Origin: Chloroflexota bacterium
Lineage (GTDB): Bacteria > Chloroflexota > Limnocylindria > Limnocylindrales > CSP1-4
Direction of reading: 5' to 3'
DNA: 28,355 nt
Assembly: GCA_043778745.1 (NCBI GenBank)
Contig: JAYWFP010000120.1
Span: 1-28,355, forward strand
Shown here in pieces: positions 8,546 through 26,176 of this stretch. A model generated the notes under the pieces. The model saw nothing but the letters and a program-made list of their open reading frames with translations. It was not told the origin of the DNA and made no database searches. A program made the position numbers and the translations under genes. Numbering within the stretch: position 1 is the first letter of the stretch; every line of letters starts with the position of its first letter.

Positions 8546-8560
8546 CGTCAATCGCGGGCC
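8546..8560. repeat. Target-site copy 1 (left TSD)
   Basis: CGTCAATCGCGGGCC, identical to 26162-26176 and abutting the left TIR. Confidence 0.93.
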
Positions 8561-8592
8561 GGGGTAGTAGATAGACGGTCTGGAAGTTGCCG
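8561..8592. repeat. Casposon left terminal inverted repeat
   Basis: GGGGTAGTAGATAGACGGTCTGGAAGTTGCCG. First 14 nt and last 7 nt are identical to the reverse complement of 26130-26161 (26/32 ungapped). Confidence 0.9.
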
Positions 8593-8750
8593 CGCGGGCG
8601 TTCCTGCATCGGGCATTCCGCCCCCCCCTTTGTGTCTGGTGATCAACCCAAGAAGTACAGCTGGACAATCCTATGTGACCAGTTATGCTCTCCTCACCGC
8701 GCCAGCCAAGCCGACCGGATAACCCGGAGGAGGCGCGTCCGGGGGGGATC

Positions 8751-9893
8751 ATGGGGCTTCGCGTTTCGCGCCTTCGCGTCGTCGCGTTAGGGGTCGTGGC
8801 ATTGGTTCTAGCGTCTTCGCCTCTCGCGGTGGAGGCCGCGTCGCCTGACTGGGGCCCCGACGTAGCAGATAGTTCGACGCTGACGGGATCAGTCGTTGCC
8901 AGCGGCCGAGTCATCGGTGTCGCCGCCGTTTCCGGGAGTCAGGTCGTCCTCCTTGCATGGCCTCGACAGGACGTCCTGTCCTCCATGGTCCCCGGCGACT
9001 CGTTCAAACTTGTTCCCGTGGGGAAGGCGCTTGTTGGCAGTGACGGGAGCTTTGACCTTCGCATTGACCCGAAGGCCAATATGGACGAGTTCCTAGAATC
9101 AGACGGTCGTGCGAACTTGGACATAAGGGTCACATCGGCCGCGGGTATGACCACCTACGGGTTACCCGTGCAGCGTGACAGTCAGGGGAGGGTCTCTTCC
9201 GACCCATCGAACGTGGTCATTGATGCACGCGCTGGAGCCACTCCGCCTGCCCAAGGGTCCCAGTCCGTTCTTGCCCCCACCGTGGACAAGTGGTGGACGG
9301 AGACGCTCGTGTTGAACTATGTCCCACAGTGGGATGTGGTTGGTGAGCTATATACCGGACCGCACGCGACAGGAACGTTCCGGTACCAGGTGCAAGCCTC
9401 CACCACGCTTGGGATCGGCGTGTCGGCGACCGGGGCCTTCGGGAGTTGGTCGAGTTCCGGCACGGTCAGCTGGGCCATCAATTCCACGCAGAATTTCGGC
9501 TCGTACGGGATCAATTCGTTGAAAGTCCTCCAAACGAAGTTCCAATACGGTAAGTACAGGGAGAGTTGCTTTACGGAGTTTGGGCCGTGTGGCATCACCT
9601 ATCAGACTAGAGTGAATCAGTTTGTTGGTGGCACGAACAATTACAACACTCCCTCAGCACCGACGGCAACGATGTGCACGACATACCTTGCGGGTACCGG
9701 AGCGGAGACGGACACCGCGACGGCCGTCACGTTCTCAAACGGAATGAGCATGGGGTCGCAAATTGGTGTCGACCTCTCGACCCGTTCGGGGTTCTCGACG
9801 ACCGTCAAGTTGTCATGGACCTATGTCACCGCCGGTTCGCTCTGTGGGACCAACAACTTCCCGCCAACCGCAAATCGTGTGGTAGCCAAGTAG
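8751..9893 (+). CDS. Secreted Ser/Thr-rich hypothetical protein
   Basis: ATG 8751 gives MGLRVSRLRVVALGVVALVLASSPLAVEA (signal-peptide-like); long open frame rich in beta-strand-like S/T/G segments. Confidence 0.7.
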   Translation: MGLRVSRLRVVALGVVALVLASSPLAVEAASPDWGPDVADSSTLTGSVVASGRVIGVAAVSGSQVVLLAWPRQDVLSSMVPGDSFKLVPVGKALVGSDGSFDLRIDPKANMDEFLESDGRANLDIRVTSAAGMTTYGLPVQRDSQGRVSSDPSNVVIDARAGATPPAQGSQSVLAPTVDKWWTETLVLNYVPQWDVVGELYTGPHATGTFRYQVQASTTLGIGVSATGAFGSWSSSGTVSWAINSTQNFGSYGINSLKVLQTKFQYGKYRESCFTEFGPCGITYQTRVNQFVGGTNNYNTPSAPTATMCTTYLAGTGAETDTATAVTFSNGMSMGSQIGVDLSTRSGFSTTVKLSWTYVTAGSLCGTNNFPPTANRVVAK

Positions 9894-9904
9894 GCGTTCA
9901 TCGG

Positions 9905-10462
9905 ATGTCGCCTGTCGATCGCCAAAGCGCCGTGGGCCTCGGAATCCTCGTCGCTGCGCTCGGCTCGCTCATCCTCGCTTCAGGTGCAGGTGGTCTCGTT
10001 GGCGGCACGATCCCGCTGCCAACCGGGCCGCTCCAGCCAGGCTCCAACTTCAAGGTGACACTGCCCCTTGCATCTGGACAGGTCGCCACCTGGGGAACCG
10101 TACTTCCTCGAAATGCGCTGACGGCTGATCTCATCCTTGAGTCGGTCCATGCCGAAGATCCGAGCCCAGGAATGGGCATCAGCGGGATACTCGTCGGTTG
10201 GCCCGACCTCGACGGTCACGCCACTGGAACAGCGCTTGGCTTTCCGCCCGATGGTACGACGACGGGACCAGTTCAAGGAACCCGACTTCCAGGTGTTGGC
10301 TCGACAGCCGCCCGGGACGTGCAAGTCCTCTTTGGCGTCTTTCTCAAGTCCGGGTATGACACCGGTGTGATCCATGGGATTCGGGTCCGATACCGGCTTG
10401 GCTCGACGCAGTTTGAGATCGTTCTGCCCGATTCCCTTGAGACAACGAACGCCCAGGACTAG
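9905..10462 (+). CDS. Membrane-anchored or secreted hypothetical protein
   Basis: ATG 9905, 11 bp after the previous stop; hydrophobic N-terminus VGLGILVAALGSLILA. Confidence 0.6.
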   Translation: MSPVDRQSAVGLGILVAALGSLILASGAGGLVGGTIPLPTGPLQPGSNFKVTLPLASGQVATWGTVLPRNALTADLILESVHAEDPSPGMGISGILVGWPDLDGHATGTALGFPPDGTTTGPVQGTRLPGVGSTAARDVQVLFGVFLKSGYDTGVIHGIRVRYRLGSTQFEIVLPDSLETTNAQD

Positions 10463-11234
10463 GACCGTCCTAGTCCTGGGCCTGATCGTCCTCGTTGTCG
10501 GCAGTGCGCCGCCGAGCGACCTTTCCGGCATCCGTCACGAGGTTGGCTCCGTCCCGAGTCTCGTCGCAATAATCAATTCCTCCGCGCCCGCGGACGACGT
10601 CTTTAGTGGTCAATACTGTGCTGGCACGCTTGTCGAACCTGCTTTGGTCATCACCGCCGCGCATTGCGTCGATTCGCGGCCATCATCGCGCATTAATGTG
10701 GTGATTGGGGCATCCAATCTATGTAGGACGGGTCCAATCGACGGGACCAGGAATGCAGTGACCCGACTTCGAATCGATCCCCGATATGACCGCGTGTCTG
10801 GCAGCTATGACGTAGCCCTGCTTGAGCTTGTAGCTCCCGCGTCTCAGGCTCCGCGAACGATTGGGACCTTGCCCCTTGTTGGGGGGGAGGATGCGTTTGC
10901 GCTAGGTTGGGGTACGGCCTCTCTGCAGGGCGTGCCGACGTGCCGTCCAACCCTTGTGCCCCTCCGCGTTGTGGCCCCCTCCGCCTGCGCGGCGGAATTG
11001 GCTGGCGCCGTCGGTCACAGTTTCAACAGCGTCACCATGCTCTGCGCTGTGCCCCGCGCTGAGCCCAAGATTGACACATGCTTGGGAGATAGCGGAGGCC
11101 CACTCGTTTTGGGGAATGACGTCGCGACCGGACCGCTGATCGGGATCGTCAGTTGGGGGGTGGGCTGCGGCAAAGGCGCACCAGGCGTCTATGCGATACC
11201 CCAATGGGCCGATGAGATGGGGTTTGGGTTCTAA
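10437..11234 (+). CDS. Secreted trypsin-like serine protease (S1)
   Basis: CAGTLV, ITAAHC, YDVALLEL, GDSGGPL, IVSWGVGC give a complete His-Asp-Ser triad. TTG 10437 yields the signal-like MRQRTPRTRTVLVLGLIVLVVG; start inferred. Confidence 0.9.
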   Translation: MRQRTPRTRTVLVLGLIVLVVGSAPPSDLSGIRHEVGSVPSLVAIINSSAPADDVFSGQYCAGTLVEPALVITAAHCVDSRPSSRINVVIGASNLCRTGPIDGTRNAVTRLRIDPRYDRVSGSYDVALLELVAPASQAPRTIGTLPLVGGEDAFALGWGTASLQGVPTCRPTLVPLRVVAPSACAAELAGAVGHSFNSVTMLCAVPRAEPKIDTCLGDSGGPLVLGNDVATGPLIGIVSWGVGCGKGAPGVYAIPQWADEMGFGF

Positions 11235-25199: not shown

Positions 25200-25211
25200 T
25201 CAGGTCGTACC

Positions 25212-25240
25212 CTGCCGCGGTCGACTCTCGGCCGCGGCAG
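25212..25240 (+). terminator. GC-rich hairpin downstream of 24642-25199
   Basis: CTGCCGCGGTCGA-CTC-TCGGCCGCGGCAG: 13-bp stem with one wobble; no U-tract. Confidence 0.45.
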
Positions 25241-25257
25241 CAAGTCAACGGGCCAAC

Positions 25258-26040
25258 ATGAAACCGAGTGACGAACTTCTAGTGGACGCCGCCGCGCAAC
25301 GCCTAACTCTCACTAGCGTTGAGGGGATCGTTCGCGTGTGGCAGGACCGCGCTCGGGCTGCTAAGGCCTGGCAGAGCTGGGTGGCTAGTCGACCACCGAG
25401 CAGCGTGACCGGACTTACGCCCCCGGGTCGGACCCCAGCACGTTTCCGATTCCTGGACCGGATCAGGGGAACGGTCGGGTCCTCATCTGCTGGGATGACC
25501 AAGGGAGTAAGGACCGCGACCCCGTTTGACGAGACCCCACCGAACATCACCTCGCGGATTTGGCTCGATCGGCCGACTCGTTGGCGCGTCGAGACCACGG
25601 CGGACGAGGGACAGGCAACCGGTGTCCTTGTGATCAATGGTGGGCGCTGGGATTTCGCGGTCGAACGTCGCGACCATCGGGGGGCCGAGACCCAGGAGGC
25701 CGGCGACACGTCGCCGTTGACTTTGCACGCCAGCGTCGCGGCCATGATTGACGCGGACAGCATTCTTGGGAAGCTGACCCTCGAGCCAGCTGGGATGGTC
25801 GTCCACGCAGGGCGCAACTGCCACCGTCTAATTGGTTTGCTAATCGACCCTGATGATTTCCCTGTGTGGCCCGCTGACTCGTATGACTTACTGCTGGACA
25901 GCTTGATGGGAATCCTGCTTCGTTTCGAGGCCCGTTCTGGTGGAGCAGCGTACGCACGGGCGGAGTTCACTGATGTAACTTCAGGAAGGACCATCCCGGC
26001 GGACGTATTCGAATTCGGGACCTCTCCAAAGTCTTTGTAG
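25258..26040 (+). CDS. Hypothetical protein, possibly LolA/RseB-like fold
   Basis: RIWLDRPTRWRVET, LLLDSLMGILLRFE and terminal IPADVFEF resemble LolA-like proteins; weak, by eye. Confidence 0.5.
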   Translation: MKPSDELLVDAAAQRLTLTSVEGIVRVWQDRARAAKAWQSWVASRPPSSVTGLTPPGRTPARFRFLDRIRGTVGSSSAGMTKGVRTATPFDETPPNITSRIWLDRPTRWRVETTADEGQATGVLVINGGRWDFAVERRDHRGAETQEAGDTSPLTLHASVAAMIDADSILGKLTLEPAGMVVHAGRNCHRLIGLLIDPDDFPVWPADSYDLLLDSLMGILLRFEARSGGAAYARAEFTDVTSGRTIPADVFEFGTSPKSL

Positions 26041-26129
26041 CGTCTCGGACAAAGTCAAAGGGCATGTGGCGCATCCTCGGCTCCCTGCGGACTCCGTGGC
26101 CGTCCCCTAAGTCCCAACCGCCAGGCCAT

Positions 26130-26161
26130 CGGCAACTCCAGGCTCGCCTATCTACTACCCC
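26130..26161. repeat. Casposon right terminal inverted repeat
   Basis: Reverse complement is GGGGTAGTAGATAGGCGAGCCTGGAGTTGCCG; abuts target copy 2. Confidence 0.9.
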
Positions 26162-26176
26162 CGTCAATCGCGGGCC
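26162..26176. repeat. Target-site copy 2 (right TSD)
   Basis: CGTCAATCGCGGGCC, identical to 8546-8560; has a TIR on both sides. Confidence 0.93.

Follow-up and report, generated by a model that had tools for sequence, protein, structure and literature searches.

A 28,355-nt stretch of DNA (hereafter the window; contig JAYWFP010000120.1 of assembly GCA_043778745.1) from a Chloroflexota-like sediment bacterium carries, at positions 8561-26161, a structurally intact element of 17.6 kb that is very probably a complete bacterial casposon resembling those of family 3. The four features that define casposons, namely a Cas1-family integrase (the casposase), a family B DNA polymerase (PolB), terminal inverted repeats (TIRs) and a target-site duplication (TSD), were each tested and all are present. 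Casposon-bearing and casposon-free forms of the locus were found in the same natural samples, and the insertion lies against a promoter -35 box, a position that other elements of the lineage appear to use as well.

Ends, target duplication and empty sites

The 15-bp sequence CGTCAATCGCGGGCC occurs exactly at both 8546-8560 and 26162-26176, so that the two copies abut the two TIRs, as a previous reading made from the sequence alone (the sequence-only reading) had described. The left TIR (8561-8592, plus strand) is made of a 14-nt block 1 (8561-8574), which pairs perfectly with the right arm, and of a block 2 at 8582-8592 (GGAAGTTGCCG); the right TIR (26130-26161, minus strand) has its block 1 at 26148-26161 and its block 2 at 26130-26139. 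Both 32-nt arms begin with GGGG, and they were recovered as the imperfect repeats reported before, with 26 of 32 positions paired (81% complementary) and the terminal 14 nt perfect. The window is GC-rich (67%) and 238 inverted pairs were listed in it, those of 28-35 nt at 71-81% being common, so a lone pair of 32 nt at 81% would be unexceptional. This pair carries weight because its first 14 nt are perfect, its arms abut the direct repeats, its blocks are conserved in relatives and its copies are scarce in the metagenome-assembled genome (MAG). Both blocks were found at both ends of seven related elements, in the form GGGGTAGTAG.TAG, a variable stretch of 7-8 nt and then AAGTTGCCG, and the whole MAG contains the two ends of the element, one solo TIR and no other copies.

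The proposal of an exact 15-bp TSD stands as far as the 15 bp are indeed exact; however, the full exact direct repeat is 25 bp long (about 47 bp when indels are allowed) and the duplications in the family are mostly of 14 bp. The repeat extends to 25 bp because a third TIR-like copy (26177-26204) adjoins the right target copy. The fifteenth duplicated base is itself ambiguous, since it could be the C of the flank or the terminal C of the TIR, and we therefore read the TSD as 14 or 15 bp.

Beyond this second copy, a third copy of the target, with 14 of the 15 bp exact, is located at 27060-27073, and the 883 bp between them (26177-27059, plus strand) are read as the remnant of an older insertion into the same target. 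The remnant begins with the solo TIR (26177-26204), in which both blocks are present with a spacer 4 nt shorter, and it contains an open reading frame (ORF) for a 141-aa lipoprotein-like protein (26571-26996); no right TIR was recognisable before 27059. In order to find the empty site in other genomes, congeners were searched with the host gene that ends in the target, and the flanks were then compared (genomes are labelled G and related loci L). In G007 and G011, the promoter region of an Rrf2 gene leads to a single 14-bp target copy and directly into the host gene, without any TIR-like sequence and without the 883-bp remnant. In G001 (L004, G001:C267), a different insert of about 815 bp with one minus-strand ORF lies between diverged target copies, and it starts with a TIR that is deleted in the middle (GGGG followed by AGTTGC). 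Together with the insertions in the window, this insert indicates that the site has been hit more than once in the genus.

The casposon-free state was also found in the population from which comparable sequences are available. Contigs of four public runs (X1-X4; two belong to the probable source study and two to another one) were placed on positions 7800-27700, and in all four an exact joint connects 8545 to 26162, so that 17,616 bp, equal to the element together with one copy of the target, are skipped. The depths of this joint were 64.9, 46.3, 23.7 and 4.4, against approximately 10, 7, 7 and 1-3 for the contigs of the element, which makes the casposon-free allele the major one and puts the casposon-bearing allele at roughly 10-30% by word depth, itself a rough measure. 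In X1, one contig of 1637 bp spans 8390-8545 and then 26162-27642 with no differences, and the casposon branch that leaves from 8545 shows no differences either. The 883-bp remnant is part of the casposon-free allele as well. An independent 42-kb contig bears the insertion with four mismatches in 15.4 kb, and another assembly provided a scaffold (L098; ENA ERZ28573536, scaffold_6210, 17,573 bp) that stops at 26147, which is 14 nt short of the right end, and whose start, as deduced from its length, falls 14 nt inside the left end. This scaffold lacks nothing of the element but the two terminal blocks of 14 nt, so its assembly graph broke exactly at the ends, as would be expected when both alleles are present.

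The element has moved recently, since filled and empty alleles share the same natural samples. The suggestion that the insertion is recent and possibly mobilisable is thus supported by a population with two alleles, and the empty site that had been asked for exists in two congeners as a single-copy target and in all four runs as the major allele. The casposon-free allele may precede the insertion or follow an excision, and a deletion between the 25-bp repeats would give the identical joint.

Casposase, polymerase and the alternatives to an intact casposon

The casposase gene (22971-24533, plus strand) encodes a Cas1 protein of 520 aa with a Cas1 domain (Pfam Cas_Cas1, 4e-45), a cysteine cluster (C382, C385 and C400) and a C-terminal helix-turn-helix (HTH). 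Of 57 full-length relatives, at least 97% keep E179, H262, D274 and E277, and the same holds for the cysteine cluster and the HTH, which bears out the earlier call of a solo Cas1 with its catalytic residues in place. Among solved structures, the best match was to 6opm, the Methanosarcina mazei casposase, with its Cas1 chain of 431 aa (E 1.2e-23, 87 bits), followed by an Archaeoglobus Cas1 (1.7e-20). ARAGORN also placed an 89-nt tRNA-Thr(CGT) at 24239-24327 on the plus strand, its sole tRNA call; it lies wholly within the cas1 frame and is in all likelihood spurious, given that this is GC-rich coding sequence.

The polymerase gene (17899-20925, minus strand) encodes 1008 aa, and searches of Pfam, NCBIfam and the PDB sequences gave no match with E under 0.01 for the protein, while a profile of 13 PolB sequences reached at best E 0.056, with Thermococcales polymerases. 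Because the sequence searches failed, its identity was decided by structure prediction and Foldseek. The AlphaFold2 model (pLDDT 91.7, pTM 0.92) had 226 matches at E <= 1e-3 (best PDB match E 3.5e-12), and the top 50 were all family B polymerases, including those of herpes simplex virus 1 (HSV-1), African swine fever virus (ASFV), phi29 and RB69 as well as E. coli Pol II, KOD/9N and pol alpha. By this model the protein is a family B polymerase. The exonuclease and polymerase motifs that had been listed from the sequence hold up across the family: D46 and E48 (Exo I), D147 (Exo II), Y267 and D271 (Exo III), D355 and Y360 (motif A), K536, Y544 and G545 (motif B), D618, T619 and D620 (motif C, CDTDS), and K706 and R707 are invariant in 54 homologues. 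The C-terminal HTH of PolB is related to that of Cas1 (15 of 35 positions identical, E 8e-6), and with two stand-alone copies the element holds four such related tails. From this likeness we infer a common binding site for the tails, most probably TIR block 2.

More than 1200 homologues of this PolB, all unnamed, were found, and a search of species-representative bacterial genomes with it returned 393 related stretches in Chloroflexota, Dormibacterota, Acidobacteriota, Eremiobacterota, Gemmatimonadota, Actinomycetota (including Streptomyces luteireticuli) and others. The statement that complete bacterial casposons are rarely characterised remains fair for experiments, but the lineage itself is common. 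Within the family of the host the distribution is patchy, with PolB in 2 of 81 sampled genomes. We compared 82 loci (80 of the 393 stretches and two others). In 74 of these, Cas1 is encoded 2-4 kb upstream of PolB and on the other strand, most of the remaining loci being short contigs, and in 32 related loci besides the window we found TIRs that start with GGG(G/A)TAG, duplications mostly of 14 bp and total lengths of 11.5-19.4 kb.

Searches with tblastn over the same 82 loci delimit the conserved core, which is made of PolB (82 loci), Cas1 (74), a small protein of about 130 aa (72) and a zinc-finger protein of 150 aa (34 at E <= 1e-5, 38 at E <= 1e-3). The small protein (21393-21785, minus strand) shows a weak HTH signal (Pfam HTH_28, E 0.36) and has gene calls in L097 and L098. 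The zinc-finger protein (20922-21374, minus strand) lies upstream of PolB and has an HNH-like set of motifs (CxxC, CxxC, D/H-H, N, N-D-H). Upstream of cas1, a slot that is conserved in position and poorly so in sequence holds a protein of about 346 aa (21865-22905, plus strand; matches in 5 of 82 loci).

A maximum-likelihood tree separated 69 PolB-linked Cas1 sequences, that of the window included, from 20 CRISPR Cas1 sequences of the same phylum by a branch with 100/100 support. Several of the CRISPR proteins are labelled I-C or I-D by NCBIfam, and the casposon group was gathered through PolB; the tree covers these two sets and speaks to the separation from CRISPR Cas1 only, archaeal and published family 3 references not being part of it. 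The window Cas1 falls in a Chloroflexota/Dormibacterota clade of nine (100/99), with L080 as its nearest relative (85% identity), and the Streptomyces element L052 is placed within the same PolB-linked group. The casposase clades largely track host phyla (Acidobacteriota, Eremiobacterota, Gemmatimonadota, Actinomycetota and Chloroflexota/Dormibacterota), a pattern which suggests that casposases have long been resident within phyla, with few jumps between them. The window Cas1 also scores below every CRISPR subtype cut-off, the best being 108 bits against 560 for Cas4g/Cas1g and 385 for I-C. The grouping with CRISPR Cas1, which had been named as a result that would refute a casposon, was thus not what we found.

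Several points weigh against the reading of a complete and recently mobile family 3-like casposon. The TIR arms mismatch at 6 of 32 positions, and PolB has a serine in place of the motif B asparagine (among 54 family members, 45 have N and 6 have S). The 150-aa protein can be called HNH-like from its motifs only: Pfam HNH was matched by 1 of 27 members of its family (E 0.25), and the HNH fold was unconfirmed, as PDB profile searches and Foldseek against PDB and a viral library returned only zinc-finger matches. The population evidence consists of assembler contigs and word depth, not raw reads, and no circular or excised joint was among the joints listed from the contigs of the four runs. That no cas2 was found in the MAG is weak evidence for a Cas1 outside CRISPR, given that the MAG is 67% complete. 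Finally, the placement in family 3 draws on the domain architecture of Cas1, on the CDTDS motif, on the length of the TSD and on a resemblance, judged by eye and a lead only, to a machine-read alignment of AceAut-C1, and not on reference casposase or PolB sequences of families 1-4.

Among the other explanations, the one that survives best is that the element is a real casposon that is no longer mobile, and that the empty allele arose from a casposase-independent deletion, by slippage or homologous recombination, between the 25-bp exact (about 47-bp imperfect) repeats. We regard this as unlikely, even though the direct repeats it needs do exist, in the form of the TSD followed by the left TIR and of the TSD followed by the solo TIR, and even though a deletion between them would yield exactly the observed joint, with 25 letters that fit both sides; the TIR arms that are just 81% alike and the motif B serine would also suit this reading. 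However, in all four runs, which come from two studies, the casposon-free allele is the commoner one, as suits an ancestral state, and the flanks of both alleles are without differences. None of the core genes is truncated and their catalytic residues are conserved, and in other lineages related elements occupy this site in either orientation, which indicates its repeated use. Nor does the clean joint favour a deletion, since the excision of the M. mazei casposon likewise leaves a single clean target (PMC10359463).

There is only a very slight chance that a site-specific recombinase of the tyrosine or serine type moved the element as a genomic island, in the manner of pipolins and integrative elements, with the 25-bp repeats as attL and attR and with Cas1 as a passenger. 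The direct repeat is longer than a typical TSD, and a small HTH_17 (excisionase-like) protein, a UDG and defence-like cargo are present, as they are in pipolins (PMC11551731). However, the extra 10 bp of the repeat are explained by the solo TIR, the true empty sites hold the 14-bp core only, and no recombinase or integrase domain was found in the ORFs scanned. In addition, the 32 related elements terminate in inverted repeats, lie in different target sequences and mostly show 14-bp duplications, and Cas1 is linked to PolB in 74 of 82 loci; we therefore disfavour such an island. Practically no weight is left for a Cas1 left over from CRISPR-Cas adaptation beside an unrelated polymerase, with chance repeats or a mis-joined contig, which could appeal to the many inverted pairs of a GC-rich window and to relatives named 'CRISPR-associated endonuclease Cas1' in their sources, and which is refuted by the joint contigs, by the Cas1 tree and by TIR blocks conserved across elements. 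Against it also stand both junctions, as reproduced by independent assemblies, the missed subtype cut-offs, a Pfam Cas1 score of 154 bits against 220-356 for 80 Cas1 matches of the same phylum (a few others reach 126-142), and the lack of a CRISPR repeat array in the window besides that of cas2 in the MAG.

A promoter target and the polarity of insertions

The intact casposon sits between a cyclase/STAND gene and an Rrf2 gene, and its target links the two: at its outer end it has TTGACG, which serves the Rrf2/suf operon promoter as -35 hexamer, and further in it corresponds to the last codons of the cyclase/STAND gene. The promoter (8522-8551, minus strand) is sigma-70-like, with its -35 at 8546-8551, that is the first six bases of the promoter-proximal TSD copy, an 18-nt spacer and the -10 TAGACT at 8522-8527; it fits 9 of 12 consensus positions, where 0.0 such sites were expected in shuffles, and a palindrome that resembles an Rrf2 operator lies just downstream (approximately 8500-8519). 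On the other side, the host gene runs on the minus strand and closes within the third target copy, which supplies its stop codon and last codons; the 3′ part of this gene is present in the window (27061-28355). The product of the complete gene is 890 aa long and has guanylate-cyclase and NB-ARC/AAA_16 (STAND) domains; the gene is found at full length, with Pfam matches, in L097, and has orthologues in congeners. Both promoter and gene are intact after the insertion, and the promoter-proximal copy remains part of a whole promoter because the insertion duplicates the -35 box.

The same arrangement was seen elsewhere. The elements of L015, L016, L019 and L080 also adjoin an Rrf2 gene, in either orientation, and the promoter-side flank has the -10 and the operator motif at the same distance in L015, L016, L019, L020 and L080. 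In L020 the flank motif is present, but no Rrf2 match was found in the stretch examined, and L057 has neither. Across phyla, TTGAC stands at the outer end of the duplication in 18 loci, and 15 of these have a TAnnnT hexamer 17-18 nt further out, from which it follows that the lineage inserts at the upstream edge of -35 boxes. To judge by these sequences, the target of this casposon is site-specific and is the upstream edge of a promoter -35 box.

TIR-like remnants adjoin the duplication only on the promoter-distal side, in the window as in L080, L019, L029, L032, L015, L027, L057 and L020. As the remnants are always on the far side, new insertions must use the promoter-proximal copy of the target, and arrays grow with polarity. 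In L020 and L057 the neighbouring TIR is of a different subtype, so that GGGGTAGTAG...GAAGTTGCCG and GGGGTAGTTG...CGAGTTGCA are found side by side at one target, and different casposon lineages therefore share the site.

From the observed ends, duplication, empty and filled alleles, conserved core, and target motif with its polarity, the following course of events can be proposed. The casposase would bind the bipartite TIRs through the 14-nt terminal block and through the AAGTTGCCG block 7-8 nt further in. By analogy with the casposases of Aciduliprofundum boonei and M. mazei, Cas1 would then join the 3′ ends of the TIRs to staggered sites 14-15 bp apart, gap repair would produce the target duplication, and PolB would presumably replicate the element. 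At this locus an older insertion had already left the solo TIR and the 883 bp when the present element entered the promoter-proximal target copy. A further idea, which we put forward tentatively and consider rather doubtful for now, is that this casposon lineage may read promoter architecture itself, and not a plain sequence: it would insert at a -35 edge with a -10 located 17-18 nt away, perhaps through DNA held by the RNA polymerase holoenzyme, and with only the promoter-proximal copy being reused the arrays would grow from a fixed 'leader', as they do in CRISPR.

Two other repeats were seen in the window. At 5369-5602, upstream of an ORF that starts at 5614, a partly palindromic motif of 21 nt (TTCATACGCCC..CGTATGA-like) occurs in four copies, which look like repeated operator sites. 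At 2269-2422, 15-nt periodic repeats (GCTGGGCTG.TC.GA-like) lie within a long ORF region and would encode a low-complexity segment.

Cargo genes and comparison with known elements

All the genes of the element outside the core were matched in at most 5 of the 82 loci and are regarded as cargo, which is found on both sides of the core; a relaxed Pfam scan of the small and unassigned ORFs gave nothing usable. The left end carries a 402-aa protein with a predicted signal peptide (8685-9893, plus strand) and a trypsin-like serine protease (10374-11234, plus strand; Pfam Trypsin, 1.4e-29), and the right end a 184-aa protein with a predicted signal peptide together with a 260-aa protein (24645-26040, plus strand), and none of these had a match in the 82 loci. 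One of the two stand-alone HTH copies (11231-11545, minus strand) resembles the casposase tail: over 85 aa it is 42% identical to residues 429-512 of Cas1 (E 4e-17). The other (15013-15294, minus strand) copies the polB tail, 275 nt of it being 83% identical to the polB 3′ end at 17915-18189 on the minus strand. Between them, a Dam-type N6-adenine methyltransferase of the D12 class (11680-12585, plus strand; Pfam MethyltransfD12, 4e-47) overlaps the gene of a 768-aa DGQHR (DndB/DpdB-like) protein (12578-14884, plus strand; Pfam DndB 8e-16, NCBIfam DGQHR 1.9e-39), the N-terminus of which gave a weak match to an Hjc-like nuclease. This pair, which had no match in the 82 related loci, is likely a modification-dependent defence system, judging from its domains.

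A last group of cargo genes, all on the minus strand, precedes PolB in the window and encodes a UDG (15312-15872; matches in 2 of 82 loci), the small HTH_17 protein (15907-16113; also in 2), a 246-aa PRTase-like protein (16184-16924; in 1) and DprA (16933-17859; in 2). The locus L015 carries all four together, and it is the only one with the DprA/PRTase pair, which is found there in the same position after PolB.

In regards to known elements, the closest kind appears to be the bacterial family 3 casposons with an AceAut-C1-like Cas1. Two of its members, above all AceAut-C1 of Candidatus 'Acetothermum autotrophicum' but also NitAL212-C1 (Krupovic et al. 2014, PMC4046053; 2016, PMC4779613), share with the window element a bacterial host, and the hosts of the related PolBs found here are likewise all bacterial MAGs or genomes. 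As in the window Cas1, that of AceAut-C1 combines a C-terminal zinc-binding domain with an HTH. The size is comparable (17.6 kb against 14.4-20 kb), and so is the TSD (14-15 bp here, 14 in NitAL212-C1 and 15 in AceAut-C1), while the TIR starts with GGGGTA here as in NitAL212-C1. Genes for a methyltransferase, a UDG and HTH proteins and a location between genes are further points in common, as would be the small protein beside PolB, which is HNH-like by its motifs with the fold unconfirmed. In contrast, the host belongs to a Chloroflexota lineage that the searchable literature does not list, the target is a -35 hexamer overlapping the last codons of the upstream gene where published targets are described only as 'intergenic', and the PolB of the window has a C-terminal HTH related to the Cas1 tail.

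The family 2 casposons (MetMaz-C1 of Methanosarcina and AciBoo-C1 of A. boonei) also have an HTH at the Cas1 C-terminus, and the 6opm chain is the best structural match of the window Cas1, although the identity is low. They differ by their archaeal hosts and by targets at tRNA 3′ ends or between genes, whereas the window element uses a promoter, and its PolB lacks a Pfam DNA_pol_B match. The signals for the type of this polymerase (family 2/3, or protein-primed as in families 1 and 4) are mixed: motif C reads CDTDS as in the polymerases among which the A. boonei casposon PolB is placed (PMC7544198), yet some relatives at 40-45% identity have weak matches to PF03175 (protein-primed polymerases), and in Foldseek phi29 and RNA-primed polymerases were matched about equally. 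In Methanosarcina, tandem insertions and solo TIRs at one site have been described (PMC4779613). For the A. boonei casposase, PMC6614799 reports a TSD of 14-15 bp and site-specific integration that depends on target sequence on one side, and the promoter-side flank in the window would be akin to the 'leader' of that casposase as described there and to the leader of CRISPR arrays. CRISPR adaptation is similar in its Cas1-family integrase, in the duplication of a short target and in insertion at the copy beside a fixed flank, with older units further off; it differs in that here no cas2 was found, there is no array of short spacers and there are no interference genes, the unit being a whole 17.6-kb transposon. 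Pipolins (piPolB elements) share a self-encoded family B polymerase, a UDG, defence-like cargo and bounding direct repeats, but they use tyrosine recombinases, mostly in tRNA genes, and have neither Cas1 nor TIRs.

No description of casposons in Chloroflexota or Dormibacterota was found among the papers listed, PMC9755687, which uses both words, being concerned with hot-spring Cas1 diversity, and the searchable literature gave no case of promoter -35 targeting, of polar arrays in bacteria or of a natural population with two alleles. The Chloroflexota clade and the two-allele population evidence are new here.

It has been proposed that the machinery for integrating CRISPR spacers descends from casposons, and to our knowledge all casposon biochemistry and the sole in vivo work concern archaeal elements; in the searchable literature fewer than ten bacterial casposons are described, with targets given only as 'intergenic'. 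The lineage reported here is common in soil and sediment bacteria and carries defence-like cargo. Its representative in the window is a complete, single-copy bacterial casposon with exact ends and a defined target, for which casposon-free and casposon-bearing alleles are available from the same samples, so that integration could be rebuilt in vitro. Such work could reveal which flank directs the insertion, whether the -35/-10 geometry is read and why the promoter-proximal copy is preferred. If the promoter-reading idea were true, the element would be a living and testable intermediate for the origin of leader-proximal spacer integration from casposons. Its value lies in offering a defined, testable substrate for the study of bacterial casposon integration and of CRISPR-like polarity.

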